A stretch of DNA of 33,430 nucleotides from the NCBI GenBank assembly GCA_041622835.1, contig JBFJYB010000001.1, forward strand, positions 1-33,430, in the 5' to 3' direction. This DNA comes from Acidimicrobiales bacterium (lineage in GTDB: Bacteria > Actinomycetota > Acidimicrobiia > Acidimicrobiales > JBFJYB01). Of this stretch, positions 3,622 to 29,163 are shown piece after piece. How positions within the stretch are numbered: the stretch's first letter is position 1; each line of letters begins with the position of its first letter. The notes beneath the pieces are model-generated. The model searched no databases, was not told where the DNA came from, and was given only the letters and a program-made list of their open reading frames with translations. The position numbers and the translations under genes were made by a program.

Positions 3622-4035
3622 TTGGAGCGCATAGCCGTCGCGGTCGCGGTGATCGTGGCGGCCGCGGTGATCGCCCTCGTGGTCCAGCGCCGCCGACCCG
3701 ACGCACCGAGCACCGGCAACTACGACGTCCCGGCCCAGCTCGATCGTCGCGAGTTCCTCGACCCGACCGCGCCGTGGCTTGCCGCCGTGTTCACGTCGGC
3801 GTCCTGCGAGTCCTGTGCGGCGGTGTGGGCGACGGTCTCGGGGCTGGCCGGTGGCGACGTCGCCGCCCAGGAGGTCGAGCTCGGCGCCCGCCCCGACCTG
3901 CACAGCCGGTACCGCATCGAGGCCGTGCCCACGACCGTGATCGCCGACGATCAGGGCGTGGTGCGCGCCTCGTTCCTCGGTCCCGTCGACCGCGACACGG
4001 TGGCCCGGTCTCTCGACGAGCTGGACGTGTCCTAG
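3622..4035 (+). CDS. Membrane-anchored thioredoxin-fold protein (CxxC = CESC)
   Basis: This is the frame of track ORF 3424..4035. The part before 3609 overlaps ftsH, so the start was placed at TTG 3622 (LERIAVAVAVIVAAAVIALVV, a TM anchor). The thioredoxin-like layout is ...AAVFTSASCESCAAVW...RYRIEAVPTTVIADDQGVV...LDEL. The start is approximate. Confidence 0.65.
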   Translation: MERIAVAVAVIVAAAVIALVVQRRRPDAPSTGNYDVPAQLDRREFLDPTAPWLAAVFTSASCESCAAVWATVSGLAGGDVAAQEVELGARPDLHSRYRIEAVPTTVIADDQGVVRASFLGPVDRDTVARSLDELDVS

Positions 4036-4048
4036 GCCCCGGGGCCGC

Positions 4049-5788
4049 TCAGCTGAAGCCGAGGAGCTCGGGGGTGACCAGCTCGCCCCCGACCGGGGTC
4101 GCCATGGCGGTGACGAGGCCGGCGACCCCGACCGGCGCCAGGGAGCGCTCGGCCACCACCGGGGCGGTGGCCTCGATCACGAGCAGGAAGACCCCCGGAT
4201 CGACCAGCTGGCCCAGGTCGGGGATCTCGAGCCGACGACGGGGAGCCAGCTCGATGTCCTGCAGCTCGGCCACCGGGGTGACGTCGGCACCGGTCACGAC
4301 CGACACGCTGACCCGGCTGATGGTGACGAACGACGGGTTGACCACCGCCACCTGCTCTCGGACGGTGTCGGAGACCTCGTTGAGCCCGACGACGAGCCGG
4401 GTCGACGCCAGCGGCGCGCCCATCGTCATGGCGACGCCACCGCGGACGGGCTCGGGTCCGGGCATCGCCGGGTCGGCGGGCTCGGCCGGGTCGGGTTCCT
4501 CGGTCTCGGGAGACAGCGAGCCGTCCAGCGGCTCGTCGGTTCCGGCGTCGGCCGGGTCGCCGGCCCCTCCCCCGCCGCCGTCAGGCTCGTCGGCCGGCTC
4601 GGCGGGCTCGGCGGGCGGGTCGCCGGCTCCTTCGGTTCCGGGTGCCACCGCGGTGCGCACCCGCTCGGCGACCACTGGCACGCCGTTGAACGACACCACC
4701 CCGACCCAGTGATCGACGCCGACCGGCACCCGCGCGCCGGTCGCCACGGTGACGGTGGTGGACTTCGGGTGGACCGGGGTGTCGTTCACGACGACCACGA
4801 CGCGCTGGCGGGGCGGGACGGTCAGCTCGAACGGCTCGACCTGGCCGTTCTGGTCGGGGTTGTCGAGGCGGACCTCGACGTCGACCTCGGCCGAGACCTC
4901 GTTCGGGTTGTACACCACATAGCTGTCGGTGACGCCGGGCGAGGTCTCGCCCAGCGGGAAGATCCACTGGAGCGCGGTCTGGGGTGCACCGGCCGAGACC
5001 GACAGCCCGGTGAGCCCGCGGCTTCCGTCCCACGTGACCAGGCGGTCGGCGACCAGCCGCCCGGCCTGGACCGCGACGGTCGTGGAGAGCTGGTCCCAGC
5101 GGCTGACGACCTCGGTCACGTCGACGGGCACCAGCGACCCGCCCGGGACCACCAGGTTGTCGAACCGTTGCGGTGCGCGACCCCCGTCGTCGGTCGCGAA
5201 GGTGATGTCGACGACCGCCTCGTCGGGGAACGGGTTGAACAGGGCCAGCACCTGGCGGGCATCGCGGCTGGTCGCGCCGCCAGGGAAGTACCAGTTCTCC
5301 GAGGCCGCCGTCGAGCAGGGCGCGCTGCCGGTCCCCGTCGGGCCGGACACGACGTGCTCGACCACGACCTCACTGCTGTCGAGCTCGAGCAGTGCCGCCG
5401 CATAGCCGGCACCGATCAGCTCGGCCAACACCAGCCGCTCGACGGCACCGGGGGCGACGCGTATCGCAGCGGTGACCGGCGGGACCGCCAGCACTGTCTC
5501 GTCGGCGGCGATCTGGGCGCCGTAGACGGTCATGGTGCCGCTCACGTCCCGATCGCCCGGGTTGGCCACCACGACCTCGTGATCGGCGAACCCCGCCGGG
5601 GCCACCGTCCCGCCCGCGCAGTACCAGGTCGAGCCCAGCGCGCCCCCGGGAGGGGCGGCCGGCATCGACGACGGGCTGGTCACGTCGAGGGTCGACTCCG
5701 CGCTCGGGCGTTCCCGCTGGTCGAGGATCACGAGCCCGGCCACGACCGCGGCGATCACGACGATGGCGGGCCACCGGGGAAACCTCAT
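4049..5788 (-). CDS. DUF5719-like secreted/anchored protein with repeated beta-sandwich-type modules
   Basis: The track ORF 4049..7696 is a composite. ATG at 5788 (MRFPRWPAIVVIAAVVAGLVIL, a signal anchor) overlaps the upstream gene's stop by 4 nt (ATGA). The recurring signature W-Y-(C/F)-x-G-G (STWYCAGGT, ENWYFPGGAT) followed by NP-rich strands is what I associate with DUF5719. A 70-aa acidic/Pro linker lies near the C-terminal module. Confidence 0.75.
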   Translation of the reverse strand: MRFPRWPAIVVIAAVVAGLVILDQRERPSAESTLDVTSPSSMPAAPPGGALGSTWYCAGGTVAPAGFADHEVVVANPGDRDVSGTMTVYGAQIAADETVLAVPPVTAAIRVAPGAVERLVLAELIGAGYAAALLELDSSEVVVEHVVSGPTGTGSAPCSTAASENWYFPGGATSRDARQVLALFNPFPDEAVVDITFATDDGGRAPQRFDNLVVPGGSLVPVDVTEVVSRWDQLSTTVAVQAGRLVADRLVTWDGSRGLTGLSVSAGAPQTALQWIFPLGETSPGVTDSYVVYNPNEVSAEVDVEVRLDNPDQNGQVEPFELTVPPRQRVVVVVNDTPVHPKSTTVTVATGARVPVGVDHWVGVVSFNGVPVVAERVRTAVAPGTEGAGDPPAEPAEPADEPDGGGGGAGDPADAGTDEPLDGSLSPETEEPDPAEPADPAMPGPEPVRGGVAMTMGAPLASTRLVVGLNEVSDTVREQVAVVNPSFVTISRVSVSVVTGADVTPVAELQDIELAPRRRLEIPDLGQLVDPGVFLLVIEATAPVVAERSLAPVGVAGLVTAMATPVGGELVTPELLGFS

Positions 5789-8700
5789 GCGAGCTCCTCC
5801 GATCGGAGGGCCTCGCTGGCGGCGCGGTCGACGGCGACCAGCCGCAGCAGGACCACGACGACCAGTCCCCACAGCACGGCCTGGCCGATCCGGCCGAGAC
5901 GCTGCGAAGAGGAGGTCTCGAATCGCAGGACCGCCTCGCCCGCGTCCGGCACGGCGAAGAGGTTGGCCCAGCCGAAGGCCTCGCTCCGCAGCGCCCGGGA
6001 GCCTCCGAGGTCGAGCCGCCAGCCCTCGTCGGACGGCGTCGAGAGGTAGAGGTCGGTCGACGCGGAGAGCGGCCCGCGCAGCTCGTCGAGACGCTCGCCG
6101 GTGAGCGGCATCGTCGCCCCGGTCAGGTCGATCCGGGCGGCGTCGTCGAACGACGAGGCGCCGCCGACCAGCCCCTGCTCGACCTGGGCGGCCAGCGGGG
6201 CCCACGACGAGTTGTGGTACACGACCAGGCCAGGGCTCAACTCCACCCGCTCCAGGTCGAGCTGCTCGGACAGCACGGCCAGCAGGCCGGCCGGCGCCGC
6301 CGACTCGAGGGTCCCGAACGGCGCCGGCGCGATCCGCTCGGGGAGCACCAGGTAGCGCACGCCGAACGGCGCGAGCAGCCGACCCAGCCGGCTGGTGCCT
6401 CGATCGAGCGCGATCTCGATGGCGTCGACGATCAGCTCCGCCGGTTCCTCCCGGGGACCGGGCCAGCGGTCGAGCAGCGTGCCCAGGCCGTCGGTGGTGA
6501 GCGCGAACCCGACGCCGTCCGCCAGCTCCCATGCGCCAGCCGGCAGCGTGTCGGGATCGCCGAGCCACAGCACCCGGAACGCGTCGTCCTCGACCGCTTC
6601 GTCCTGGATGAACCGCAGCGTCGTCGCGAAGTCCCGTTCGGCCGCCTCCCACCTCCCGTCGAAGGTCGACCCGAGGATCGGGACCACCGCGGCGGCCAGT
6701 GCGACCGCGGCCGTCACCGGGACGGCTTGCCGCCATCCGAACCGGTACCGCCTCAGGTCGACCTCGAAGGCGGCCATGCCCATGGCAACGGCCAACGCCA
6801 GCCCCGCAGCGGCCGGCGCCAGGAGCACCTCGGGACGGGGCAGCCCGACCGGGAGCAGGCCGGCCTCGCCGACCCACGCCAGCGCGACCGAGCCGAGGTA
6901 GAGCGACCAGCCCCGTATCGCCCAGGCGAAGCGCCCACCGGTCCCCAGCACCAGGGGCAGGACCGCGGCGATCGGCAGCGCCCAGCCCAGGGTGCCGCCG
7001 CCGATGGGCCCGGTGTCGAGGCGGAGCAGGTCGACGAGGCTCAGCTCGCCTCCGTTGCTGGAGCGGACCCCGAGCACCAGATCGGGATCGCCGCGCACCA
7101 GGTCGAGGCTCCACGGGAGGTTCAGGGCGAAGGCGACCACGATCGCACCGGTCGCGACGGCGATCGCCCGGCGGGCGCCGACCACCATCCCGCACAGTGC
7201 GGACCCCACCACCGCGGTGACGACGATCAGCACGACGACCGCCAGCGCCACCGGCGCCATGGCGGCGACGATGCCCAGCAGCAGGCCCAGGGCCAGTACC
7301 TCGCGGGCCGGAGACGGTGGCAGGACGCCCGGACCGCTGGGCCCGTCGAGCGGTCCGAACGGGGTCTGCCGCCAGGCCCGGGCGACCCCACCGAGAATCC
7401 ATGGAGCAGACCCGTAGACGACGAGGGCGGTCAGCGATCCGTTGGCGATGGCGTTGTAGGGGATCGGTGCCGCGAGGTACGCGATCACCGAGACGACCTG
7501 CGCCCGCCTCGACCCGAACGGCGCGACCAGCCGGTACGAGCCCAGCGCGCCGAGCGGGATGAGCCCGAGCACCAGCAGCGTCCGCAGCAGACCGGTGGCG
7601 CCGCCGAAGGGCCAGCTCAACAACCCGAGCAGCCACAGCCCGGTCGGCGCCGCCCCGGCCCGGCCAAGGCCCGTCGGTTGCCAACCGCTCCACCATCGAC
7701 CGAGGACGTCGCGGCCACGGTCGGGGAGGTCGGCCAGCTCCCCGATCGCCGGGATGCCGTCACTGATCAGATGCCGGCTGCCCAGCACCAGCACCACGAT
7801 GGCGGCCACCCACGTCCCGATGGTCGCCTGGGTCGATCCGGAGCGAAGCGCGGCCATCAGCGCCTCGCCGCGGCCCGACGTGGTCGAGTCGGCTCGCTGT
7901 CGGATGAAGTGGGTGACCGGAGCGAAGCCGCCGACCTGGTGGGTGCGGACGTCTCGGTCGGGTAGCTGGCGGAGGGCGCGGTTGCGACGCCGCTTCCGCA
8001 GGATCGACCCCGTCCTGGCCAGGTTCCACGGCCACGCCGACAGGCCGGCCCGCAGACGGTCGAGTCGCGCCGTGAACAGCGAGTAGACGGCATCGAGCAG
8101 GGTGAGGATCAGCGCCTGAGGGACGACCCTCAGGAGGTGGGCGGGTCCGTAGTTGCTGAGCATGGCCCGCAGCTCGTGGCGGCGCTGGAGCCGGAGCTGC
8201 TGCAGGTCGGGGCGCCGCTCGGCGAGGCTCTCACGGTGACGAACGACCGCCGACGGGACGACGAGGACACGTGCTCCGGCGAGGTGGGCCCGCCAGCCGA
8301 GGTCGACGTCCTCACCGCGGAAGGTCATGGCCGGATCGAATCCACCCAGCGCCCGGAACAGGTCGGTCCGGACCAGCGTGCAGGCCCCGGGGACGGCGAA
8401 CAGGTCCCTCACCGCGTCGTGCTGTTCCTGATCGAGCTCTCCCGGCTCGGCGACGGGCAGGGTCGCGCCCATCTTGTCGACGTCGATGCCGACCTGGCGC
8501 AGCCGCTCGGGCTCGTCCCAGTCGACGAGCTTGGGACCGGCGACACCGGCGTTGGACCGCACCGCCTCCTCGACCAGCAGGCGCACGGCATCGGCCCGCA
8601 GCGCGATGTCGTCGTGGCAGATCAACAAGAACGGCGAGTTGAGGTCGAGGTCGAGCAGCTCGTTGGCGGCCGGCCCGAACCCGTTCCGGGAGTCGACAGG

Positions 8701-8979
8701 ATGGACGCGGGCGTCGGGAACCACCGCTCGGACGCGGGTCGCGAGGCCGGGGTCGGCGGCGGTGTCGAGGACGACGAGCGACAGGCGGGGGTAGTCCTGG
8801 GCGTGGAAGGAGGCCAGCGTCTCCTCGAACCACGGTCCTGGCTCGTGGGCCACGACGACCGCGGTCACGGCCGGCGCTACCGGCCGCCGCTCGACGTCCC
8901 GGTCGCCCGACGAGGGGGTCGGAACGGCAGTCTCCACTGCTGCGGCAGAGTACCCGGCCGACCCCGTGATGTCCCACAC
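5785..8979 (-). CDS. Family 2 glycosyltransferase fused to a large polytopic membrane domain
   Basis: The ORF is 5785..9180. The N-terminal GT2 fold reads VVVAHEPGPWFEETLASFHAQDYPRLSLVVLD...FLLICHDD...FRGEDVDLGWR. It is followed by at least 10 hydrophobic helices, then a ~300-aa soluble region closed by a last TM helix (IGQAVLWGLVVVVLLRLV). The start was set at GTG 8979 because the Arg-rich stretch upstream looks non-coding. The start is uncertain by tens of nt. Confidence 0.85.
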   Translation of the reverse strand: MWDITGSAGYSAAAVETAVPTPSSGDRDVERRPVAPAVTAVVVAHEPGPWFEETLASFHAQDYPRLSLVVLDTAADPGLATRVRAVVPDARVHPVDSRNGFGPAANELLDLDLNSPFLLICHDDIALRADAVRLLVEEAVRSNAGVAGPKLVDWDEPERLRQVGIDVDKMGATLPVAEPGELDQEQHDAVRDLFAVPGACTLVRTDLFRALGGFDPAMTFRGEDVDLGWRAHLAGARVLVVPSAVVRHRESLAERRPDLQQLRLQRRHELRAMLSNYGPAHLLRVVPQALILTLLDAVYSLFTARLDRLRAGLSAWPWNLARTGSILRKRRRNRALRQLPDRDVRTHQVGGFAPVTHFIRQRADSTTSGRGEALMAALRSGSTQATIGTWVAAIVVLVLGSRHLISDGIPAIGELADLPDRGRDVLGRWWSGWQPTGLGRAGAAPTGLWLLGLLSWPFGGATGLLRTLLVLGLIPLGALGSYRLVAPFGSRRAQVVSVIAYLAAPIPYNAIANGSLTALVVYGSAPWILGGVARAWRQTPFGPLDGPSGPGVLPPSPAREVLALGLLLGIVAAMAPVALAVVVLIVVTAVVGSALCGMVVGARRAIAVATGAIVVAFALNLPWSLDLVRGDPDLVLGVRSSNGGELSLVDLLRLDTGPIGGGTLGWALPIAAVLPLVLGTGGRFAWAIRGWSLYLGSVALAWVGEAGLLPVGLPRPEVLLAPAAAGLALAVAMGMAAFEVDLRRYRFGWRQAVPVTAAVALAAAVVPILGSTFDGRWEAAERDFATTLRFIQDEAVEDDAFRVLWLGDPDTLPAGAWELADGVGFALTTDGLGTLLDRWPGPREEPAELIVDAIEIALDRGTSRLGRLLAPFGVRYLVLPERIAPAPFGTLESAAPAGLLAVLSEQLDLERVELSPGLVVYHNSSWAPLAAQVEQGLVGGASSFDDAARIDLTGATMPLTGERLDELRGPLSASTDLYLSTPSDEGWRLDLGGSRALRSEAFGWANLFAVPDAGEAVLRFETSSSQRLGRIGQAVLWGLVVVVLLRLVAVDRAASEALRSEELA

Positions 8980-9360: not shown

Positions 9361-10488
9361 ATGGGCTCCGACCGGCTGACGCTGGCGATCGACGCCACCC
9401 CGCTGCTCGGCCCGCGTACGGGCATCGGGACCTTCGTCGAGAACCTGCTCGGACACCTCGACCCGACCGACGTGGAGGTCACCGCCTTCTCGGTCACGTG
9501 GCGGGGGCGCCGGCTGCTCCACCGAGCGGCCCCGAAGGGGGTCCGGGTCGTCGCCCCACCGCTGCCGGCCCGGCCGCTGCGGACGCTGTGGGCCCGCCTC
9601 GGGGGTCCGCCGATCGAGTGGTTCGTCGGCGAGGCCGACGTCGTGCACGGCCCCAACTTCGTCGTGCCGCCGGCGAGGCGGGCCGCCACCGTGGTGTCGG
9701 TCGCCGATCTGACGCCCGTGCACTGGCCGGAGCTGTGCACCACGCCGGTGAGGCGCTACCCCGAGCTGATCCAACGAGCGATCGATCGAGGCGCCTTGGT
9801 CCACGCCATCTCCGACTTCGTGGCCGACGAGATCCGCGAGCACTTCGCCATCGAGCCGGACCGGGTCGCGACGGTGCACCTCGGTGTCGCCCGGCCGACC
9901 GGCACCGGCGGCGATCCGCCGCCGACCGACCGGCCCTATGTCGTGGCGACCGGAACCATCGAGCCGAGGAAGAACCTGCCGGTGCTGGTGGCCGCCTTCG
10001 ACCGGATCGCCGGTGCGATCGACCTCGACCTGGTGATCGCCGGGCCCGACGGCTGGGGTGTCGACGAGCTCGACGCCGCCATCTCGTCCAGCCCCCACCG
10101 CCGCCGCATCCACCGACTCCCCTGGATCGACGACGCCTCGCGCCAGCGGCTGGTCGCCGAGGCCGCGGTGCTCGCCTACCCGTCCCGCTACGAGGGCTTC
10201 GGGCTGCCACCGCTCGAGGCCATGGCCCTCGACACGCCGGTCGTCGCGGCCCGGGCCGGAGCGGTGCCCGAGAACGTCGGCGGCGCCGCGATCCAGGTCG
10301 AGCCGGGGGACGTCGACGGCCTCGCCGCGGCGCTGCACGACGTGCTCTCGGACGAGGCGCGGCGAGCCGAGCTGGTCGCCGCCGGCCGGCTTCGGGCCGC
10401 CGACTTCGACTGGGGCGACTGTGCCGCCGGGCTGACCGCCCTCTACCGCCGGGCCGCGTCCGACAGGGCACGCCCGCTGCGACCGTAG
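9361..10488 (+). CDS. GT4-family glycosyltransferase (GT-B, retaining type)
   Basis: The 375-aa ORF carries the C-terminal E-x7-E region PSRYEGFGLPPLEAMA. Its N-terminus, LTLAIDATPLLGPRTGIGTFVENLL, is typical of GT4 mannosyl/glycosyl transferases. Confidence 0.88.
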   Translation: MGSDRLTLAIDATPLLGPRTGIGTFVENLLGHLDPTDVEVTAFSVTWRGRRLLHRAAPKGVRVVAPPLPARPLRTLWARLGGPPIEWFVGEADVVHGPNFVVPPARRAATVVSVADLTPVHWPELCTTPVRRYPELIQRAIDRGALVHAISDFVADEIREHFAIEPDRVATVHLGVARPTGTGGDPPPTDRPYVVATGTIEPRKNLPVLVAAFDRIAGAIDLDLVIAGPDGWGVDELDAAISSSPHRRRIHRLPWIDDASRQRLVAEAAVLAYPSRYEGFGLPPLEAMALDTPVVAARAGAVPENVGGAAIQVEPGDVDGLAAALHDVLSDEARRAELVAAGRLRAADFDWGDCAAGLTALYRRAASDRARPLRP

Positions 10489-10526
10489 ACTCGTGCGATG
10501 AGCTACCACGCCGGGTGGGCCGACTG

Positions 10527-13394
<2,868 letters not shown>

Positions 13395-13398
<4 letters not shown>

Positions 13399-14093
13399 CG
13401 GCGCTCGAGATCCGCGCCGTCGACGGCCTGCCCGAGATCGAGGCGGGCGCCGACCTGGCCTCGATGATCGCATCGGCCGGCGAGCTCGTGGACGGCGACG
13501 TGGTCGTCGTCACCCAGAAGATCGTGTCGAAGGCCGAGGACGCCATCGCCGAGGTGGACCCCGACGACCCGCTGAGCCACAAGCCGCTCGTCGAGCGGGA
13601 GTCGGTGCGGATCCTGCGGCGACGGGGTGACCTGATCATCAGCGAGACCAAGCACGGGTTCGTGTGCGCCAACGCCGGCATCGACCTGTCGAACGTCGAG
13701 CGGGGTCACGCCGCGCTGCTCCCCGAGGACCCGGACCGCTCGGCCCGGCGCATCCGGGACGGCCTGCGGGCCAGGGCCGGCGTCGAGGTGGCGGTGATCG
13801 TCTCGGACACCTTCGGCCGACCGTGGCGCCGCGGCGTGACCGACGTGGCCATCGGCAGCGCCGGGATCCGGCCGGTGATCGACCTGCGCGGCACCGCCGA
13901 CGCCTTCGGCCGCGAGCTCCAGGTGACCGAGGTGGCGGTGGTCGACGAGATCGCCGCCGCCGCCGAGCTGGTCATGGGCAAGTCGGCCGGCATCCCGGTG
14001 GCCGTGGTGCGAGGCGTCGACCCGACCTGGCTGGGCGACGGCTCGGTGCGCGACGACCTGATCCGCAACCCCAGCGAGGATCTCTTTCGCTAG
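13395..14093 (+). CDS. cofE: Coenzyme F420-0:L-glutamate ligase (CofE-type, single domain)
   Basis: ATG at 13395 overlaps the cofD stop (ATGA). Motifs: LPEIEAGADLASMI...VVVVTQKIVSKAE...HGFVCANAGIDLSN...VIVSDTFGRPWRRG. At 232 aa it covers only the ligase domain. Confidence 0.88.
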
Positions 14094-14209
14094 GCGCAGC
14101 GATAATCCGCTGCGCCGCCTTCGGCATCTGGCGCCACCCGCAGCTGCGCCGACGACGCAGTCGTCGACGCCCCACCCGGAACCTCTAGGCGCAGCGATGA
14201 TCCGCAACC
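14091..14209. repeat. Short direct repeat in the cofE / His-rich-gene convergent intergenic region
   Basis: taggcgcagcgatAatccgc (14091..14110) and taggcgcagcgatGatccgc (14186..14205) match at 19 of 20 positions and lie 95 nt apart. The second copy continues as gatccgcaacc, which also occurs at the cofE 3' end (14060..14070). Confidence 0.6.
14093..14116 (+). terminator. Perfect 9-bp hairpin immediately after the cofE stop (possible intrinsic terminator, no U-tract)
   Basis: GGCGCAGCG-ataatc-CGCTGCGCC, with the stem starting at the last base of the TAG stop. It lies between convergent genes. No T-run follows, so its function as a terminator is inferred only. Confidence 0.45.
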
Positions 14210-14259
14210 AGCCGGGCGCCTCGGCGCTCGGCGGGCGAATGGCACTGTTCGCCGACTGA

Positions 14260-14931
14260 TCAGCCGCCGATGGGGGTGGGCTCGGTCAAGATGTCGGTGA
14301 CCTGCTCGATGTTGGGGATCGAGGGCGGGGGCGGGATCTCGGCGCCCAGCGGGGCCAGGGCGAAGGTGAACGCCTCGACGTTGCGGAGGAAGCGCTCGGA
14401 CTCGATGTCCTCGGTCACCACCTCGGGGGCGGTCGTCTCGGCCTCGAGTGCGTTGCTCCAGCGCAGCAGCTGGACCACCGCCGGCTCGCCGTCGCAGTCG
14501 ACGCCGGCCTCGAGCCGCTCGCCGGAGGCCAGCGTGATGGCTTCGGGCGACACGTCGATGCTGAGCTGGTCGAGGAACACCTCGAGGGTGGCGCCCTTGC
14601 CGGTGGCGTTGGCCGAGAACGGGTGGATGTGCATCAGGCCGTCGCCGTGGGTGTGGATGCCGAGCACGTCGGGGCCGACGTCGTTCTGCGGCGGCAGGTA
14701 GGACTGGGTGGTGCAGTCGTAGATGCCGTAGGCGGAGTGCCAGTGGTCGCTGAGCGTCGGCTCGGCGACCGCGTCGCGGGTGCTGCGGGCGAACGCCACC
14801 AGGGCGACCCCCAGCAACATGACGACGATGACCGCGGCAGGGAAGCCGATGGCCCGACGATCGGTCGTACGGCTGGTCGACCCGGCCCGAGCGGCGCGGG
14901 CGACCTTCTTCGCAGAGGATGCCTTACCCAT
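14260..14931 (-). CDS. Membrane-anchored extracytoplasmic His-rich protein (hypothetical)
   Basis: The 223-aa ORF has a basic N-terminus and a TM anchor (IGFPAAVIVVMLLGVALVAFA). The external domain carries HWH...C...HTHGDGLMHIHPF and ends in a Pro-rich tail. It lies 29 nt downstream of the GT4 gene on the same strand. Confidence 0.7.
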   Translation of the reverse strand: MGKASSAKKVARAARAGSTSRTTDRRAIGFPAAVIVVMLLGVALVAFARSTRDAVAEPTLSDHWHSAYGIYDCTTQSYLPPQNDVGPDVLGIHTHGDGLMHIHPFSANATGKGATLEVFLDQLSIDVSPEAITLASGERLEAGVDCDGEPAVVQLLRWSNALEAETTAPEVVTEDIESERFLRNVEAFTFALAPLGAEIPPPPSIPNIEQVTDILTEPTPIGG

Positions 14932-14960
14932 GCCCCCACGCTAACGGCGAGATCGGGGGA

Positions 14961-16211
14961 TCAGCGCTCACCCCGCCGACGGGCCTGCATCTCCTGGAAG
15001 AGCTCGACGTACGCGGCGGCGGCCGCGGTGGGCGTGAGCCACTTCTCGACGAACGTGCGGCCCGAGCGGCCCTGCTCGGCCAGGGTCTCCCTGTCGGCCA
15101 GCATCTCCCCGAGGGCCCGATCGAAGGCCCCCTGGTCGTCGGGGGCCACGCTGACGCCGGCGCCGGCGGTCTCGAGCACCCTCGACACCTCGGTACCGGG
15201 ATCGATCGACGCGAGGACCGGACGACCCGCGGCGAGGATCGAGTACAGCTTGGACGGGACGCTCGACGAGCCGAGGCCTCGGCGCAGGGGCACGACGTGC
15301 AGGTCGGCGGCCGCCAGCACCTCGGGCAGACGCTCGGCCGGCTGGTACCCGACGAACCGCACGTTCGGGAGGCCCTCGGCCCGGCGCTCGAGCTCGGCCC
15401 GGCCCGAGCCGCCACCGTTGACGACGAAGACGACGTCGTCGCGGTCGGTCATCCGGCGGGCCGCCTCGACCAGCAGCTCGACCGACTGCGAGAAGCCGAT
15501 GTTGCCGGCGTACATCACCACGGTCTCGTCGCCCAGCCCCAGCTCGCGCCGGTAGCCGTTGTCGCGCGGGCCGGGTCGGATCGCCTCGCAGTCGACGAAG
15601 TTCGGGATCACCCTGACCTCCGTGCCGTGGCCGGCTCCACTGGCCTCGAGCTTGGCGGTGACGTTGGCAGCCAGCTCCTGGCTGAGCACGGTCACGGCGT
15701 CGGCCCGCCGGTAGCACTGGCGCTCGACGGTGCGGGCCACACGGATGATCCGCTCGTTGGTGAGCGAGCCCACTGCGATGGCGACGTCGGGGAAGATGTC
15801 CTGCACGTTGAACACGAACGGCACGCGCCAGCGCCGGGCCGCGACCCAGCCGGCCTCGGCCAGCGACAACGGCGGCGACATCACCAGCACGCCGTCGGGG
15901 CGAGGTCCCCGCAGCGCCGCGACCGATGCCTCGATCGTGAAGGCGCCGAAGGCCAGGGCGCGGGCCGGCACGTTGCGCTTGTCGGTCGGGAACGGGTGGA
16001 GGCGGGTGATCTTGCCCCAGTCGACGGTCTCGGTCCGGGCCAGGCGACCCGACCACTCGGGCTCGACCCGGTTACGGAGGTACCACGGCAGCGAGGTGAC
16101 CACGTCGACCCGGTGACCGGCATCGGTGATGCCCCCGACGATCCCACCGAGCACCTCGCCCGTCGGCGCGACGTCGGGTGGGAAGTGGGGGCCGATCACG
16201 AGCAGGCGCAT
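14961..16211 (-). CDS. GT4-family glycosyltransferase (WcaI/WbuB-like)
   Basis: The real start is ATG 16211 (MRLLVIGPHFPPDVAPTGEVL...) inside track ORF 14961..16871. The protein is 416 aa. The N-terminal PHFPPD...G pattern and the C-terminal GT-B half (VPLRRGLGSSSVPSKLYSILAAGRPVLA) are typical of the WcaI/WbuB subgroup. Confidence 0.85.
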   Translation of the reverse strand: MRLLVIGPHFPPDVAPTGEVLGGIVGGITDAGHRVDVVTSLPWYLRNRVEPEWSGRLARTETVDWGKITRLHPFPTDKRNVPARALAFGAFTIEASVAALRGPRPDGVLVMSPPLSLAEAGWVAARRWRVPFVFNVQDIFPDVAIAVGSLTNERIIRVARTVERQCYRRADAVTVLSQELAANVTAKLEASGAGHGTEVRVIPNFVDCEAIRPGPRDNGYRRELGLGDETVVMYAGNIGFSQSVELLVEAARRMTDRDDVVFVVNGGGSGRAELERRAEGLPNVRFVGYQPAERLPEVLAAADLHVVPLRRGLGSSSVPSKLYSILAAGRPVLASIDPGTEVSRVLETAGAGVSVAPDDQGAFDRALGEMLADRETLAEQGRSGRTFVEKWLTPTAAAAAYVELFQEMQARRRGER

Positions 16212-16252
16212 CGGTCGGGATGCTATTGCCACCTCCGGAGAACGGGGCGGGG

Positions 16253-17221
16253 TCAGCGGCGGTCGGATTCCGCCAGCCACCCCAGGGTGCGGCCCACACC
16301 CTCCGGCATCGAGAACGGCAGGGGTCCGGTCAGCTCGTCGAGCTCGGCCGAGGGGAACGCCGAGGACGTGAGCATGTTCTCGAGGCGGAACCGGGTGAGC
16401 GGGGGCTCCGACCAGACGCCGAGGCGGGCGGCGACGTCGCCCACGGTCGCGGCGACCCGTAGCGCAGCGAGCGGGACCCGGCGAGGGGCACGACGCCCGG
16501 CTGCAGCGGCGATGGCGTCGGCGAGCTCGTCGATCGAGTACGGCGGCGTGTCGGCGAGGTAGTGCGTGCTCGACGCCTCTCCCTCGTCGAGCAGGGCGTC
16601 GATCTGGACGACAGTGTTGCCGACGAACCCGAACGCCTTGTCGACGCGGGTGCGGCCCGGGTGGACGTAGCGCCCGGCGAGGACGTGGTCGAAGAAGTCC
16701 CGGTACGGCGTTGCGAACCAGGGGCCCCAGATCGACGTCGGGCGCACGATCACCCACGAACACGCCGGCGCCCACCGCCTGACCAGCTCCTCCATCTGCT
16801 GCTTGCTGCGCCCGTAGGCGGTCGTCGGGCAGTAGTCGGTGTCGGAGGTCGGGATGTACCCGTTGCGGCACACGAGCAGGCTCGACGCGACGACGAGGCG
16901 CTCGACGCCGCCGTGGCCCTCGACCGCCGCCAGCAGGTTCTGGGTGCCCTCGGTGTTCACGGCGTAGTCGTCGGCTCCGCCACCGGTGAGATCGGTGCGA
17001 GCGGCGAGGTGCACGACATGGGTGGGGTCGGCGGCGGCGACGGCCGCCACGAGCTCGCCCCGATCCCCGACGTCACACGACCGCCAGCACGCGGCGTGGG
17101 TGGGGTCGCGAGGCGGGGCCACGTCCAGGTTCACGACCGGCTCGCCCCGAGCGACGTAGTGGGCGACCAGGTTGGTCCCGATGAAGCCCGACCCGCCGGT
17201 GACCAGCAGCCGCCGGCTCAC
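16253..17221 (-). CDS. NAD-dependent epimerase/dehydratase (extended SDR)
   Basis: GTG at 17221 overlaps the upstream stop (GTGA). Motifs are LLVTGGSGFIGTNLV (GxxGxxG) and YGRSK (YxxxK). The protein is 322 aa. Confidence 0.85.
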   Translation of the reverse strand: MSRRLLVTGGSGFIGTNLVAHYVARGEPVVNLDVAPPRDPTHAACWRSCDVGDRGELVAAVAAADPTHVVHLAARTDLTGGGADDYAVNTEGTQNLLAAVEGHGGVERLVVASSLLVCRNGYIPTSDTDYCPTTAYGRSKQQMEELVRRWAPACSWVIVRPTSIWGPWFATPYRDFFDHVLAGRYVHPGRTRVDKAFGFVGNTVVQIDALLDEGEASSTHYLADTPPYSIDELADAIAAAAGRRAPRRVPLAALRVAATVGDVAARLGVWSEPPLTRFRLENMLTSSAFPSAELDELTGPLPFSMPEGVGRTLGWLAESDRR

Positions 17222-18333
17222 CGTGACCGCCCCGCGGCCGAGGCCGCCGACCGCAGCACCGCAGCGGTCTGGTGTCCCGCCTCCTCCCACGAGAAGCGGG
17301 CCAGGTTGGCCCGCCCGGCCGCGGCGAGACGCTCGCGTTCGGCCGGGTCGGCGCCCAGCACCGCCATGGCCTCGACGAGCTGGTCGACGCGACGAGGGTG
17401 GAAGAAGCGGGCGCCGGAGCCGGCCACCTCGGGGAGCGGCCCGGCATCCGAGCAGATGAGCGGGGCATCCAGCAGCTGGGCTTCGAGCACCGGCAACCCG
17501 AAGCCCTCGTAGGTCGAGGCGTTCACGACCGCGACGGAGGACCGGTACCAGCCGGCCAGCTCGGCGTCACCCACCTCGCCGACATGGTGCACGTACCCGC
17601 CGGCGTCGTGGGCGGCGATCGCCTCGGCCAGCACGCCGTAGGGATCGGCCCCCACCACACGGAGCTCGGCGTCGACGCCGCGATCGCGGAGCTGGCCGAC
17701 GGCCTCGACGACGGTGGCCGCGTTCTTGTTCCTGGTCACCGAGGCCACCATCAAGAAGTAGGGCCGGCACGCGGGCGGCGGCACCGGCTCGACGTCGGCG
17801 AGCGCCGATCGGGCCCCCTGGTAGACGACCGTCGTCTTGCCGCGCGATGCGGGGATCAGCTCCTCGAGATCGCGCCGCGTGTTCTCGGAGACGGCGATCA
17901 CGGCCGCGCAGGCCGCGACCGATCTGGGGATGAAGGTGCGGTAGTAGGCCCGCCGCACCCGTGGGATGGCCTCGGGGCAGCGCTCGTAGTACAGGTCGTG
18001 GATCGTCACCACTCTCGCGACCGGGCCGCGCAGCGGCGAGACGTAGCCGGTGCTGAACAAGACGTCGACGCCATCGTCGGCGGCGTGCCGAGGGAGCCGG
18101 GCCTGCTCCCACAGGACTCGCCGACCGGCCGACGAGAAGCGGGGACAGGCTCTGACCGTGCACTGCGCCGCGATCTCCTCGGACGGCACGTAGCCGTCCT
18201 GCGCGTAGAGCACCAGGTCGACATCGTCCATCCTCATCAGCTGTTCGACGACCGACCACGTGTAGGTCGCGGTGCCGCTGCGTCGGCCCGGGTCGAGGAA
18301 GAGCGTGTTGACACCCACTCGGATCGGCGTCAC
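17218..18333 (-). CDS. GT4-family glycosyltransferase
   Basis: GTG at 18333 overlaps the upstream stop (GTGA). Motifs are IRVGVNTLFLDPGRRSGTATY and STYEGFGLPVLEAQ (E-x7-E). Confidence 0.88.
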   Translation of the reverse strand: MTPIRVGVNTLFLDPGRRSGTATYTWSVVEQLMRMDDVDLVLYAQDGYVPSEEIAAQCTVRACPRFSSAGRRVLWEQARLPRHAADDGVDVLFSTGYVSPLRGPVARVVTIHDLYYERCPEAIPRVRRAYYRTFIPRSVAACAAVIAVSENTRRDLEELIPASRGKTTVVYQGARSALADVEPVPPPACRPYFLMVASVTRNKNAATVVEAVGQLRDRGVDAELRVVGADPYGVLAEAIAAHDAGGYVHHVGEVGDAELAGWYRSSVAVVNASTYEGFGLPVLEAQLLDAPLICSDAGPLPEVAGSGARFFHPRRVDQLVEAMAVLGADPAERERLAAAGRANLARFSWEEAGHQTAAVLRSAASAAGRSR

Positions 18334-19487
18334 GCCCCGAGCTCCCGGTAGAGGTCGGCGATCAGCGCCGCGGTGCGCTCCCAGGTGTAGGTCGCCGCCC
18401 GCTCCTGTCCGGTCCGGCCCAGGGCCTTGGCCGCCGGCTCGTCCTCGAGCAGCCCGCCCAGGGCGTCGGCGATCTGGTCGATCGACTCCGGGTCGACCAG
18501 GAGGCCGGTCCGTCCCGCCACCTCGGCGGTGGCGGTGTCGGTCGACGTGACGACCGGCGCTCCCTGGTACATGGCTTCGAGGACCGGGAGTCCGAACCCC
18601 TCCGAGAGGCTCGGGTAGCAGAAGACGGCTGCACCCGCGTACAGGCTGCGCAGATCGTCGTCGGGGACGAACCCGAGCCGGTGCAGCTCGACCCGCGACC
18701 GCAGATCGTCGACCGGCTCACCCCACCCTTCGGGGCCGACCAGCACCAGCGCCACGCTGCGGGGCGCGAGCCGCTCGAAGGCACGGACGAGCCGGCGCAG
18801 GTTCTTACGCGGCTCCTCGGTCCCGACCCAGAGGACGTAGCGGTCGGGCAACCCGTACCGGTAGCGGACGCCGGTCACCTCGGCCGGGGTGGCAACCGGC
18901 CCGCCGACCCCCCACGGAACCACCCGGAGCCGGTCCTCGGCGATGCCGTTGGCCGAGCAGTCGTCGGCCGACGCCTGGGACGGGCACATCACCAGGTCGG
19001 CGTGCCGCCGGGTGAGCTCGAGCGAACGGGTGAAGAAGGACTGGCGCGTGGCATGGTCGGGGTGACGCAGGTAGGCGAGGTCGTGGACGGTCACCATCAG
19101 CGGCGCCCGCGACGCCGCGATGGCCGGGCTGGTCGCGTGGACGACGTCGACCTCGCCGGTCGCCCGCTCGACCACGGGCCGGCGCAATCGGTGCCACGCC
19201 TCGTACATCGCCGCGCGGGGCAGCGGCAGCGACCGAACCGGGATCGACGGGCGCCAGGGCTCGGGAGGCAGAGCTCGATGGCGAGCGGCGACGCCGACCA
19301 GCTCGAGGTCGTCGTGGGCCCCGAGCGCAGCCACCGACTCGAGCGCGGCCACCGCGGTCCCACCCGGCACCCGGTGCCAGCACTGCTCGAGGGTGATCGC
19401 GACACGGGTGACCGGGGGGCCGATCTCGTGACGGCTCGGCTCGTGGCGGCTCGACTCGACCCGGGGCATCGAGTCGGAGTCTGACAT
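18330..19487 (-). CDS. GT4-family glycosyltransferase
   Basis: The start was placed at ATG 19487, with ATG 19469 as an alternative, inside track ORF 18330..19745. Motifs are VAITLEQCWHRVPGGTA and PSLSEGFGLPVLEAMYQGAPVV. Confidence 0.85.
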   Translation of the reverse strand: MSDSDSMPRVESSRHEPSRHEIGPPVTRVAITLEQCWHRVPGGTAVAALESVAALGAHDDLELVGVAARHRALPPEPWRPSIPVRSLPLPRAAMYEAWHRLRRPVVERATGEVDVVHATSPAIAASRAPLMVTVHDLAYLRHPDHATRQSFFTRSLELTRRHADLVMCPSQASADDCSANGIAEDRLRVVPWGVGGPVATPAEVTGVRYRYGLPDRYVLWVGTEEPRKNLRRLVRAFERLAPRSVALVLVGPEGWGEPVDDLRSRVELHRLGFVPDDDLRSLYAGAAVFCYPSLSEGFGLPVLEAMYQGAPVVTSTDTATAEVAGRTGLLVDPESIDQIADALGGLLEDEPAAKALGRTGQERAATYTWERTAALIADLYRELGA

Positions 19488-19573
19488 GTCCGGTGCGAGC
19501 GCCGCCGCCACCCGACCCGCGCGCTGCGCACCGGGCGGGTTGTCGGGGTCGCGGAAGCTACGCTCGACACTCG
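19488..19573. promoter_or_regulatory. Divergent intergenic region between the GT operon and fcl (promoters expected)
   Basis: This rests on geometry only: there is an 86-nt gap between back-to-back starts at 19487 (-) and 19574 (+). No motif was called. Confidence 0.35.
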
Positions 19574-20533
19574 ATGTCGACCGATCTCGCCGACGCCCGG
19601 GTGCTCGTGACCGGGGGAACCGGGTTCCTGGGGCAGGCAGTCTGCCGCCAGCTCGTCGAGCGCGACGCCTCGGTGATCGCACCGTCGTCGGCCCAGTACG
19701 ACCTGCGGGACACCGCCCAGGCCGAGGCCGCGTTCTCCGACACATCGCCCGACGTCGTGATCCACCTGGCGGCGCGGGTCGGCGGGATCGGCGCCAACCT
19801 CGACCGGCCGGGCGATCTCTACCTCGACAACCTCCGGTTGGGTACCAACGTCATCGACGCCGCCCTCCACGCCGGAACCGGCAAGGTCGTCGTCGTCGGC
19901 ACGATCTGCTCCTACCCGAAGTACACCGAGGTCCCCTTCCGCGAGGACTCGCTGTGGACGGGGTACCCCGAGGAGACCAACGCCCCCTACGGCATCGCCA
20001 AGCTCGCCCAGCTGGTGCATCTCCAGGCCAACCGGAGCCAGTACGGCCAGGTCGGCATCTACCTCATGCCCACCAACCTCTACGGCCCCGGCGACAAGTT
20101 CAGCCCCACGGTCTCCCACGTGATCCCGGCGCTGATCAAGAAGTGCGTCGACGCGGTCGCGCTGGGCCTCGACGAGATCCAGGTGTGGGGCACCGGCAGC
20201 GCGAGCCGCGAGTTCCTGTACGTCGACGACGCGGCCCGCGGGATCGTCCTGGCTACCGAGCGCTACGACGGCGCCGAGCCGGTCAACCTCGGCACCAACA
20301 ACGAGCTACCCATCAAGGAGCTGGTCGGGCTCGTCGCCGAGGCCGCCGGCTACGAGGGCCGCATCCGCTGGGACGACTCGAAGCCCGACGGCCAGCCCCG
20401 CCGAGCGGTCGACCCGAGTCGCGCCCGGGAGCTGTTCGGGTTCGAGGCGACGACGTCGTTCGAGGAGGGGCTGCGGGCCACCGTCGCCTGGTACGTCGCC
20501 AACCGGGACCTGGCCGAGACCCGCGACCGCTGA
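19574..20533 (+). CDS. fcl: GDP-L-fucose synthase (GDP-4-keto-6-deoxy-D-mannose 3,5-epimerase/4-reductase)
   Basis: ATG at 19574 lies inside track ORF 19493..20533. Motifs: VLVTGGTGFLG, HLAARVGGIGANLDRPGDLYLDNLRLGTNVIDAA, GTICSYPKYTEVPFREDSLWTGYPEETNAPYGIAKLA, NLYGPGDKF, VWGTGSASREFLYVDD. This is the classical Fcl/WcaG pattern. Confidence 0.88.
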   Translation: MSTDLADARVLVTGGTGFLGQAVCRQLVERDASVIAPSSAQYDLRDTAQAEAAFSDTSPDVVIHLAARVGGIGANLDRPGDLYLDNLRLGTNVIDAALHAGTGKVVVVGTICSYPKYTEVPFREDSLWTGYPEETNAPYGIAKLAQLVHLQANRSQYGQVGIYLMPTNLYGPGDKFSPTVSHVIPALIKKCVDAVALGLDEIQVWGTGSASREFLYVDDAARGIVLATERYDGAEPVNLGTNNELPIKELVGLVAEAAGYEGRIRWDDSKPDGQPRRAVDPSRARELFGFEATTSFEEGLRATVAWYVANRDLAETRDR

Positions 20534-20576
20534 GCCTCCGCCGTAGCTGGGAAGGGCCGGGGTAGCCTGACCGGCG

Positions 20577-21296
20577 ATGTTGCGCGCCACTACCGACCTC
20601 TCACCCGACGAGCTGGCTCCGATGCTCGAGCAGTGGGGCCCGTGGCGGCTCGAGATCGAGTTCTCGAACGGGTTGAATACGACCGATTTCGGCGTCCAGG
20701 AGCCCTTCATCCCCGAGCCGCTCGGCAAGATCCTGCGGGTCGGGGCGGCGGTCGACCTCGAGGAGTTCCGGGGTGGGCGGGCCATCGACATCGGGTACAA
20801 CATCGGCTACAACACGATCTACCTGGCCGAGACCTACGACATGTCGGTGACCGGTGTCGACATCGGGACCCGCCACAAGGAGGTGGCCGAGTTCCTGCTC
20901 GGAGCGACGACCCTCGCCGACCAGGTCGAGTTCGTCGTGGGCGACGCGACCACGTTCACGACCCCCGAGCCGGTGGACCTGGTCCTGCACTTCGGGACGC
21001 TCTACCACCTGCCCAACCCGCTGCTGGCCGTCGAGACCACGGCCCGCAACCTCCGGCCGGGCGGCCTGCTGGCCCTCGAGACCCAGATCTACATCGGCGA
21101 GGACCAGACACTGTCGAAGTACATCAACGGGTTCATGGGCGACGACACCAACTTCTGGGCCCTCAGCCGCCAGACCCTCCGACGCGTGCTCACCCACTAC
21201 GGGTTCGTCGACATCGAGGTCCTGTTCGAGACCGAGCCCGACTACATCGGCCACGACATGGCCAGGATCATCCTGATCGCTCGCCGGGCCGCCTGA
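20577..21296 (+). CDS. Class I SAM-dependent methyltransferase (DUF1698/CmoB-like architecture)
   Basis: The ORF is 239 aa. An N-terminal beta segment (WRLEIEFSNGLNTTDFG) precedes motif I AIDIGYNIGYNTIYLA, then VTGVDI, FVVGDA, VLHFGTLYHLPNP and LRPGGLLALET. The substrate is unknown. The genomic context suggests sugar O-methylation. Confidence 0.75.
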   Translation: MLRATTDLSPDELAPMLEQWGPWRLEIEFSNGLNTTDFGVQEPFIPEPLGKILRVGAAVDLEEFRGGRAIDIGYNIGYNTIYLAETYDMSVTGVDIGTRHKEVAEFLLGATTLADQVEFVVGDATTFTTPEPVDLVLHFGTLYHLPNPLLAVETTARNLRPGGLLALETQIYIGEDQTLSKYINGFMGDDTNFWALSRQTLRRVLTHYGFVDIEVLFETEPDYIGHDMARIILIARRAA

Positions 21297-21320
21297 GCAC
21301 CGAGCTCCTCGACCGTCGGT

Positions 21321-22649
21321 TCACTCGGGCGTCGCCGTGCGGGGCTCGGCGAGGACGCCGTCCCAGTCGAGCCCGACGATCAGCTCCACCTCGCCGTCGA
21401 TCAGCTCGTCGACGGTCTCGATCTCGGCCTCGACCCCCAGCCAGCTCGCCAGCAGGCGCGCCGCGCTCCGACCTGGCTGGGTGGTGCGGATCACCGTGTC
21501 GGGTCGGCCGAAGGTGCCGGCGTCGCCGAACCCGACCACGTCGAAGCCGGCGGTGGCCAGCTCGTCGGCGACGGCCGCCCCCAGCCCCGAGGTCCCGGCC
21601 CCGTTGCTGACCAGCACCCGCACCGCCTCGGGTCGGGCGCCGCGGCCGGTGACGCCGCGGAAGACGTCGAACATGGCCGTGGCCTCGGGGCCTTCCTGGA
21701 GGCGCAGGACCTGCGAGCTGCCCAGCACGTCGTCGTAGACCGGCGGCACCATCAGCACGAGCGTGTCGGGCATGAAGGCCCGGAACCGATCACCCAGTCC
21801 GAGGATGTCGTTGGGCGTCAGCCGCTCGTCGACCACCAGGTGCTCGATCCCGACGTTGACCAGCTCGTTCCGCCGCCGGAAGTCACGCGCCCCCGTCGAC
21901 AGCGCCTGCTTCAGGACCGCGACCACGAACTCCTGCTGACGGTCGATCCTGGCCAGATCGGGCGTCACGTCGAGGTTCTGCCACTCACCGTCGACCCGCT
22001 GCTCCATGGCGCGCGACCGGACGTAGGCCAGCGCCTCGTCGGGGGTGAAGGTGTGCATCCCGGCCTGGTTGATCACCAGGCCGGTCCGGACGTCGCGGAC
22101 CGGGTTCTCGAGGAAGAGCGGCACGCCGCCCACCGTGTCGACCAGGTCGAGGAAGCCCTGGAAGTCGACCTGGAGGTAGTGGTTGACGGGGATGTCGAAG
22201 TTCTCCTCGATGGCCCGCACCAGCAGCTCGGGGCCCCCGATGGCGAGGGCGGCGTTGATTCGCTCCTCGTAGCGGGCATCGGGCAGCTCGACCACGAGGT
22301 CGCGGGGCAGCGACATGAGGTGCGCCTGGGTCGACGTGGGGTCGACCCGCAGCACCATCAGCGTGTCGGTGAGCTTGGTGTCGCCCCGGCCGATGACGAT
22401 GGCGCTGTCGGGGTCGAGGCCCTCGACCGAGTCGACGCCGATGAGAAGGAAGTTCAGTGGCTCGCCGGTCTGCACCTCCTCGCCGAGCACCGGGCCCAGG
22501 GCCACCCGGTTGAGCTTGTCCGCCTTGGACCCGGCAAAGTTCAAGGCGACGATCGCGAGCGCGCTCGACGCCGCCACGAGCACCCCGAGCAGGAGCAGGA
22601 ACCTTTGGGGCCAGGTGCGGCGCGACCGGAGTCGTCGGTGCGATGCCAT
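21321..22649 (-). CDS. LCP (LytR-CpsA-Psr) family glycopolymer-peptidoglycan ligase with LytR_C-type C-terminal domain
   Basis: ATG at 22649 (MASHRRLRSRRTWPQRFLLLLGVLVAASSALAIV, a TM anchor) lies inside track ORF 21321..22766. Motifs are NFLLIGVDS...DTLMVLRVDP...SLPRDL and a C-terminal VRVLVSNGAGTSGLGAAVADEL module. Confidence 0.88.
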   Translation of the reverse strand: MASHRRLRSRRTWPQRFLLLLGVLVAASSALAIVALNFAGSKADKLNRVALGPVLGEEVQTGEPLNFLLIGVDSVEGLDPDSAIVIGRGDTKLTDTLMVLRVDPTSTQAHLMSLPRDLVVELPDARYEERINAALAIGGPELLVRAIEENFDIPVNHYLQVDFQGFLDLVDTVGGVPLFLENPVRDVRTGLVINQAGMHTFTPDEALAYVRSRAMEQRVDGEWQNLDVTPDLARIDRQQEFVVAVLKQALSTGARDFRRRNELVNVGIEHLVVDERLTPNDILGLGDRFRAFMPDTLVLMVPPVYDDVLGSSQVLRLQEGPEATAMFDVFRGVTGRGARPEAVRVLVSNGAGTSGLGAAVADELATAGFDVVGFGDAGTFGRPDTVIRTTQPGRSAARLLASWLGVEAEIETVDELIDGEVELIVGLDWDGVLAEPRTATPE

Positions 22650-22711
22650 CGAGACGCCAACGCTACTGGGCTGTCCCCGCCGTTCGTGCCGCGGGCCGCG
22701 TCGACGGTCGC

Positions 22712-29055: not shown

Positions 29056-29163
29056 GGAGGTGCAGGGTAGTGCCGGCGGACGGCCCCACGTGGCTCCGGA
29101 CCGGGCTCCGAGCCGGGCCCCGACCCTGGGGCACGGGATGGAGGCGCTACGCTCCGCGCGGCG

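Follow-up and report, generated by a model that had tools for sequence, protein, structure and literature searches.

The locus and its gene pair

The stretch of DNA analysed here, referred to as the window, comprises 33,430 nt of an Acidimicrobiales metagenome-assembled genome (MAG), which amounts to 2.58 Mb in 400 contigs. On its minus strand the window carries two overlapping genes, one coding for a fusion of a glycosyltransferase family 2 (GT2) domain with a polytopic membrane module, the other for a membrane-anchored protein of the DUF5719 family. In an earlier reading of the sequence, hereafter the original prediction, the pair was taken for a synthase/exporter of the processive type with an external partner. 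The analysis described below points instead to a membrane module with a fold like that of the GT-C enzyme AftD, and suggests a role of the pair in the assembly of an envelope glycan on a lipid carrier.

The G+C content of the window is 72%, and many of its long open reading frames (ORFs) are therefore spurious; ORFs 14968–16056 (minus strand) and 27730–29070 (plus strand) were rejected as wrong-frame artefacts. The two minus-strand genes were singled out because of their third-position GC periodicity and their homology. The reading frame of the fusion has a G+C content of 0.88 at third codon positions (GC3), database searches retrieved hundreds of full-length homologues of both genes, and the AlphaFold models of the two proteins reached pLDDT (predicted local distance difference test) values of 89.4 (fusion, built on 60 sequences) and 89.5 (DUF5719 protein). 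On the grounds of GC3, homologues and confident models, both ORFs are real genes. Their nearest relatives all stem from Acidimicrobiales MAGs and isolates, e.g., Aquihabitans and "Candidatus Microthrix". A scan of genome contigs returned Acidimicrobiia MAGs only, and a named model-organism orthologue was not among the matches. The pair has the following features:

5785–8979, minus strand: GT2::AftD-like fusion gene, 1064 amino acids (aa), GTG start at 8979 (Pfam, homologues, AlphaFold model)
8197–8874, minus strand: cytoplasmic GT-A (GT2) domain, residues 36–261 (PF13641, conserved residues, Foldseek, motif scan)
7843–8196, minus strand: helical linker, residues 262–379, six helices leading from the GT-A domain to the first transmembrane (TM) helix, TM1 (DSSP on the AlphaFold model)
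6655–7842, minus strand: predicted GT-C-like membrane core, residues 380–775, 11 TM helices (model, fold match, hhalign, conservation)
5914–6654, minus strand: predicted acidic extracytoplasmic alpha/beta domain, residues 776–1022, about 245 aa (model; alignment to the soluble domain found in AftD-like proteins)
5788–5913, minus strand: predicted C-terminal TM helix (from residue 1024) and cytoplasmic tail, residues 1023–1064 (model)
5785–5788, minus strand: ATGA stop/start overlap (gcATGAgg), TGA stop of the fusion over the ATG of the DUF5719 gene
4049–5788, minus strand: DUF5719 gene, 579 aa, signal-anchor at the N-terminus, then four beta-sandwich modules of the ASRAH type (Pfam, homologues, model)
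5717–5773, minus strand: predicted signal-anchor TM helix of the DUF5719 protein, residues 6–24 (model)
5318–5632, minus strand: predicted ASRAH module 1, residues 53–157, with WYCAGG and DHEVVVANP (model, alignment)
4991–5296, minus strand: predicted ASRAH module 2, residues 165–266, with WYFPGG and LALFNPFPD (Pfam, model)
4649–4969, minus strand: predicted ASRAH module 3, residues 274–380, with WIFPLG and YVVYNPNE (model)
4439–4648, minus strand: predicted disordered, acidic, proline-rich linker, residues 381–450 (model)
4103–4438, minus strand: predicted ASRAH module 4, residues 451–562, with VAVVNPSF (model)

The near-identical database protein P0003 was called from a start six codons earlier (8997), resulting in 1070 aa. 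Since residues 1–31 of the fusion protein are unconserved and disordered in the model, its start is uncertain by 18 nt. The ATGA overlap at 5785–5788, which had already been noted in the original prediction, couples the fusion and the DUF5719 gene translationally. The dimensions then proposed for the fusion, about 1060 aa with at least ten TM helices, agree with the 1064 aa and the 11 TM helices plus one C-terminal helix described here, whereas the external domain, put at about 300 aa, is shorter.

The cytoplasmic GT-A domain

Residues 36–261 of the fusion match PF13641 (Glyco_tranf_2_3) with an E value of 3e-12 and 47.5 bits, as compared to a cut-off of 27; the partner protein likewise exceeds the curated cut-off of PF18986 (see below), so that the GT2 and DUF5719 assignments of the original prediction are both borne out. 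The GT-A motifs are HDD (residues 122–124) and GEDVDLGWR (222–230). H122, D123, D124 and D224, which represent the DxD-type metal/nucleotide motif and the downstream catalytic acid, are conserved to at least 93% in a 32-sequence phylum-wide alignment. We take this motif set to be that of WbbL/GlfT-type GT2 enzymes (COG1216). A motif scan detected QxxRW neither in the fusion nor in any of 60 aligned relatives. Foldseek matched the GT-A fold to ppGalNAc-T2 and GlfT2 with a probability of 1.00. Of the bacterial proteins among the 50 Foldseek matches listed, GlfT2 (4fix; E 5e-9, 343 columns) ranked first, its match extending into part of the helical region past the GT-A core. We conclude that the fusion carries at its N-terminus an intact GT-A domain, cytoplasmic and of the WbbL/GlfT type. 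This domain has a PF13641-type profile and the motifs HDD and EDxDLxWR in common with WbbL, GlfT1 and GlfT2; unlike the fusion, these are soluble or peripheral proteins and lack a fused polytopic module. GlfT and WbbL act on polyprenyl-pyrophosphate-linked acceptors. NCBIfam models produced only sub-threshold matches, to MftF, EpsD, PgaC/IcaA and GlfT1 (for PgaC/IcaA, 21.9 bits versus a cut-off of 422), and because these scores are far below every equivalog cut-off, donor and acceptor of the WbbL/GlfT enzymes are not transferable by homology.

Combination of a GT2 domain with a GT-C module in one protein resembles the logic of GtrB/GtrC and CsbB/YfhO. The fusion might thus act as a self-contained relay of the three-component type, the GT2 domain loading polyprenyl phosphate with a single sugar in the manner of GtrB or Ppm1, and the GT-C module decorating a wall polymer or protein outside; the linkage of phosphomannomutase and GDP-mannose genes (see below) would also fit. 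However, GtrB-, DPM- and ArnC-type models gave no Pfam or NCBIfam match to the fusion at E ≤ 0.1, the motifs of its GT2 domain are of the WbbL/GlfT type, and the acid expected in a GT-C enzyme that uses polyprenyl-phosphate-sugar donors is not conserved. Such a relay is very unlikely.

The AftD-like membrane module

Residues 262–1064 of the fusion are without any Pfam match. In the AlphaFold model, TM1 comprises residues 381–400 and TM11 ends at about residue 772; outer loops with short helices follow TM1 (402–454) and TM7 (623–652, within about 620–660). The outer domain contains 42 D/E as compared to 21 K/R residues. Conserved positions include R402, W433, G439, Y501, P526, R653, R689, F747, G748 and R750 in the membrane core, and R802, W805, D837, R875, Q906, D908 and W987 in the outer domain.

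Among the 50 Foldseek matches to PDB entries that were listed, the mycobacterial arabinofuranosyltransferase AftD (6w98_A; also 6wby) was the sole membrane protein, 6w98_A matching the fusion with an E value of 1.9e-9 and a probability of 1.00 over 844 columns. All others on the list were GT-A enzymes of the soluble kind; synthases of cellulose, hyaluronan or chitin were not among them. A PDB sequence search with the family profile retrieved GT-A domains only, with no match to the membrane part. When the family alignment of residues 370–1064 was compared by hhalign with genuine PF11847 domains from the genomes of eight relatives, a probability of 94.1% was obtained (E 1.2e-7; 445 colinear columns, 535 greedy), the alignment extending over the TM core as well as the outer domain; the controls yielded 1.5% (reversed target) and 0.1% (GT2 domain). 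By these comparisons, the relationship of the membrane module to AftD is real but remote. The predicted topology, i.e., a cytoplasmic N-terminus, 11 TM helices, an outer domain and a further TM helix, parallels that published for AftD (bioRxiv 10.1101/2019.12.22.885152). The fold of the membrane core and the adjoining outer domain is likewise shared with AftD (6W98; PF11847), and W36, Y111, R245 and R297 of AftD-like proteins correspond to W433, Y501, R653 and R689 of the fusion. The two proteins differ in length (about 1400 aa for AftD versus about 1060 aa) and in that AftD possesses three carbohydrate-binding modules and, at its C-terminus, a bundle of four TM helices which binds acyl carrier protein; the fusion has neither of these, ending in a single TM helix, and only the fusion has the N-terminal GT2 domain.

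These findings bear on the synthase/exporter of the original prediction, according to which the GT2 domain polymerises, the fused TM channel extrudes and the DUF5719 protein receives the product. As in BcsA, hyaluronan synthase (HAS) and PgaC, a GT2 domain resides on a large polytopic protein with a coupled external partner, and the 33-kb window was found to contain no Wzx, Wzy or ABC exporter. Unlike in BcsA, HAS and PgaC, however, the GT-A domain is located N-terminal to all TM helices (from residue 381) and is not embedded between them, neither QxxRW (0 of 60 relatives) nor TED is present, the GT-A motifs are those of WbbL/GlfT, and the TM domain models as an AftD-like GT-C fold and not as a channel. 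Domain order, motifs, fold and GT-A type, four independent features, led us to reject the synthase/exporter, which appears hardly tenable; a GT-C-like fold of the membrane domain had been named in the original prediction itself as a result that would speak against it, and it is because of this fold that the synthase reading fails. The additional claim that the fusion is the sole candidate exporter of a glycan-rich window is correct in that no other polytopic transporter-like ORF was seen; the exporter role does not agree with the GT-C-like fold.

Counterparts of the AftD catalytic residues

The residues essential in AftD are K39, D41, E251, K361 and D474 (bioRxiv 10.1101/2019.12.22.885152). 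In AftD-like proteins of the Acidimicrobiia, they are represented by invariant K18, E229, R339 and D450, at a constant offset of 21–24. Their mapping onto the fusion module rests on a low-confidence alignment, in which four of the five lack a conserved counterpart in the fusion family.

A number of results weigh against the reading favoured here. K39 and D41, which form the DTK..D motif after TM1 of AftD, map to a deletion in the fusion, E251 aligns with a conserved glycine (G637), and K361 with a variable hydrophobic position (residue 711). An acidic residue occupies the position of D474 (829) in 39 of 60 class members and in 16 of 32 phylum-wide sequences, the fusion protein itself carrying T829–D830. 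None of the acids of the TM region, including the loop after TM1, is conserved phylum-wide; at E414, which belongs to this first outer loop, 55 of the 60 relatives from Acidimicrobiia have D/E, and other classes have G, A or V. Since the loop after TM1 holds no phylum-conserved acid, catalysis at the outer face may not occur. The hhalign probability dropped to 5.8% with the TM part alone and to 25.7% with the outer part alone. The Pfam model PF11847 (GT-C_AftD) did not match the fusion at E ≤ 0.1, so that membership of this Pfam family was rejected, and a six-frame PF11847 genome search (E ≤ 0.01) missed the fusion genes of genomes G000, G062, G170 and G293. Moreover, an experimental study was not found in the literature on DUF5719, SCO3031–3035, ASRAH and GT-A/GT-C fusions, in keeping with the earlier statement that the pair has no assigned polymer or function. 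According to the model, then, the module has an AftD-like GT-C fold and lacks conserved counterparts of most catalytic residues of AftD.

The module might accordingly be a catalytically dead GT-C relic whose only role is to hold the GT-A domain in position and to recruit the DUF5719 protein, be it as membrane scaffold, as receptor of the lipid carrier or as an aid to translocation, all chemistry being left to the cytoplasmic GT-A domain. Such a relic would account for the missing counterparts of four AftD-essential residues and for a loop after TM1 without a phylum-conserved acid, and conservation within the module concerns mainly Arg, Gly, Pro and Trp. On the other hand, R402, W433, R653, R802, Q906 and D908 are invariant or nearly so across a very deep phylogeny, which exceeds the needs of a passive anchor, and GT-C-fold ligases such as WaaL have been described as using Arg/His sites instead of acids. 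We consider a dead relic plausible but doubtful.

The DUF5719 partner protein

The partner protein matches PF18986 (DUF5719) in two stretches, with an E value of 1.1e-15 and 58.1 bits (cut-off 26.2), and PF18986 is present in at least 120 homologues (all matches listed). The membrane-anchored protein with repeated W-Y-x-x-G-G beta-sandwich modules that had been proposed is recovered in the model, which comprises four beta-sandwiches with 21–33% identity among them; W-[YI]-x-x-[GL]-G opens modules 1–3, and an h-h-h-N-P motif occurs in all four. Single modules match Thermotoga TM1070 (1nc7) with a Foldseek probability of 1.00, TM-scores of 0.68–0.74 and a root mean square deviation of 2.3–2.8 Å, and they also match Anabaena ASRT (2ii7) and 2ii9 with a probability of 1.00. 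The tryptophan that opens strand 1 in the superfamily is found in modules 1–3 (W55, W166 and W275) and the terminal asparagine of strand 2 in all four (N76, N185, N294 and N484), Trp and Asn being invariant in 54 sequences. The DUF5719 protein is thus predicted to be a membrane-anchored tetrad of ASRT-like (ASRAH) beta-sandwiches.

The first invariant cysteine, C57, is situated within a beta-strand, 33 residues past the TM helix, and the protein contains no lipobox. Anchoring as a lipoprotein, which was predicted for the family in 2009 (see below), is therefore unsupported here. The second invariant cysteine, C158, directly follows the last strand of module 1, and a C57–C158 disulfide is possible, judging from the model.

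As compared to the 99%-identical database sequence P0123, the linker of the DUF5719 protein differs by a 3-aa insertion/deletion in a PAE repeat and a few substitutions, presumably reflecting strain-level length variation in a low-complexity spacer. Several Actinomycetota families (e.g., genomes G016, G031, G061, G090, G104, G131 and G215) contain 7–17 DUF5719/ASRAH-type matches per genome, in ORFs of 500–2000 aa. Since a GT2::GT-C fusion was not detected in these ASRAH-expanded genomes, the ASRAH-type module also appears to be used in other surface proteins.

Conservation across Actinomycetota and earlier literature

DUF5719 was matched in 160 of 301 sampled Actinomycetota genomes, i.e., about half, and the membrane module in 102 of the 301 (single-sequence search). 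In 67 of the 68 genomes for which the positions of both were listed, the fusion is followed directly by DUF5719 in the same orientation, and a median of 486 nt separates the matched stretches of the pair; the sole exception coincides with a contig end. Full-length fusions with 26–37% identity over approximately 1000 residues occur in 20 genomes of other families, including large Streptomyces-like ones. The membrane-module profile retrieved 3,368 representative proteins (50%-identity clusters) at E ≤ 0.001, and 2,251 at E ≤ 1e-10. Of the mycolate group, only the genome of Corynebacterium glutamicum was tested, and it lacks DUF5719. Conservation of the gene pair across Actinomycetota, which the original prediction had assumed, is confirmed, and the pair of the window is unremarkable within a family already catalogued but functionally unsolved.

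This family has already been described computationally, and the window adds another member. ASRAH domains were introduced by De Souza, Iyer and Aravind in 2009 (PMC2739507), who predicted sugar binding from context, reported a cell-surface ASRAH protein whose gene is linked to whiB and to the genes of a glycosyltransferase and an inactive zincin, and mentioned a fused form in Frankia CcI3. Both the family and the gene pair are those treated here, and the surface protein was predicted to bind sugars and to work with the adjacent glycosyltransferase. However, the 2009 study described ASRAH dyads, a lipoprotein anchor and tight linkage to whiB and the inactive zincin, in contrast to the four modules, the signal-anchor and the missing whiB linkage in Acidimicrobiia observed here, and a description of the glycosyltransferase's membrane module is missing from it. 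SCO3031 (DUF1025) has been linked to the whiB gene SCO3034 (PMC4255298); for the genes between SCO3031 and SCO3034, a functional mention was not found in the literature. The term DUF5719 appears in no paper of the searched literature, and as the name of a protein domain ASRAH occurs in the 2009 paper alone, the other matches listed being unrelated.

Genomic neighbourhood

Outside the Acidimicrobiia, whiB is located directly upstream of the pair in 13 of 17 genomes; linkage to whiB was observed in none of 11 Acidimicrobiia genomes (this window and ten others). We take whiB, the neighbour of the pair outside this class, to be the gene of a division regulator. A gene of the PGM/PMM family (phosphomannomutase-like) is found on the same strand within 10 kb downstream in 23 of 27 other genomes, Acidimicrobiia and non-Acidimicrobiia alike. 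It is not visible here because the contig ends 4 kb beyond DUF5719. Genes coding for a GT4 enzyme, an Rmd/Fcl-like reductase, GDP-mannose 4,6-dehydratase, CofD and CofE occur upstream, in divergent orientation, in 23–45 of 80 Acidimicrobiia loci; for the GDP-mannose dehydratase, the reductase-type epimerase and GT4 the count is 32–45 of 80, and these three are also divergent upstream in this window.

The region 9361–22766 of the window is a glycan locus with genes for four GT4 enzymes, GDP-mannose 4,6-dehydratase, three further epimerases/reductases of the short-chain dehydrogenase/reductase type, a methyltransferase and an LCP ligase. The LCP ligase is encoded 12 kb from the pair. Neither a priming transferase nor a flippase was seen in the window.

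On the other side of the pair, one further gene belongs to the cluster:

3622–4035, plus strand: membrane-anchored thioredoxin-fold CxxC protein, 137 aa, TTG start

A thioredoxin-fold CxxC gene follows DUF5719 in 57 of the 80 Acidimicrobiia loci, on the same strand in 50 and inverted in 7. In the window the gene is inverted, as in seven relatives that include the closest one; it starts 13 nt past the stop of ftsH and converges on DUF5719, its end lying 14 nt from the DUF5719 stop. It is the conserved third gene of the cluster in Acidimicrobiia, which here has undergone a single-gene inversion with its adjacency kept. The pattern M-E-R-TM-QRRRP, present in the thioredoxin-fold proteins of 14 relatives, suggests by the positive-inside rule that the thioredoxin domain faces the cytoplasm. 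The idea that this protein oxidises the two invariant cysteines of the DUF5719 protein is weakened by the predicted cytoplasmic orientation.

The FtsH protein encoded on the plus strand (N-terminus at 1641–1700) contains eleven consecutive prolines near its N-terminus. A small ORF on the minus strand (342–716), which may or may not be a gene, encodes two CxxC pairs (CRRCGG...CSHCD) reminiscent of a zinc ribbon; Pfam gave no match to this ORF, and homologues of it are missing from the 80 related loci.

Proposed role of the pair

An intact GT-A domain, a fused GT-C-fold module with a conserved outer face and a tetrad of sugar-binding type form an architecture that suggests a route via a lipid carrier, with steps at both faces of the membrane. 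We regard it as fairly probable that the pair is a two-faced unit of envelope glycan assembly, working via membrane-lipid-linked intermediates and without extrusion of a polymer through a channel of its own. Beyond the fold assignments, the mechanism that we infer would be as follows. At the inner face, the GT-A domain would add one or more sugars from a nucleotide sugar to an acceptor linked to polyprenyl-(pyro)phosphate; the conserved neighbouring genes suggest that the donor may be derived from GDP-mannose. At the outer face, the outer module with its many conserved arginines would bind the same lipid-linked glycan and process it or hand it on. The DUF5719 tetrad would supply in trans the carbohydrate-binding modules which AftD has in cis, and would hold the glycan acceptor or product. 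This two-faced model is least certain with regard to the outer module, which lacks the canonical acids and may or may not be catalytic.

In a more specific version, which we consider unlikely, the outer module would be a GT-C-fold enzyme that works without the usual acids. A putative Arg-lined site, similar to those of WaaL or Wzy, would accept as donor the polyprenyl-pyrophosphate-linked glycan finished by the GT-A domain of the same protein and would transfer it en bloc to an acceptor that the DUF5719 protein holds in place. In this case, an ancestral envelope glycan of the Actinomycetota, probably derived from mannose, would have the pair as its core machine.

Few envelope gene pairs without a known product are as widely conserved in the Actinomycetota as this one. 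The window shows that in Acidimicrobiia the pair is uncoupled from whiB, yet accompanied by thioredoxin-fold, GDP-deoxyhexose and phosphomannomutase neighbours. Naming the glycan of the pair would fill a gap in the understanding of the actinobacterial cell wall, and would test whether a GT-C fold can work without the canonical acids.

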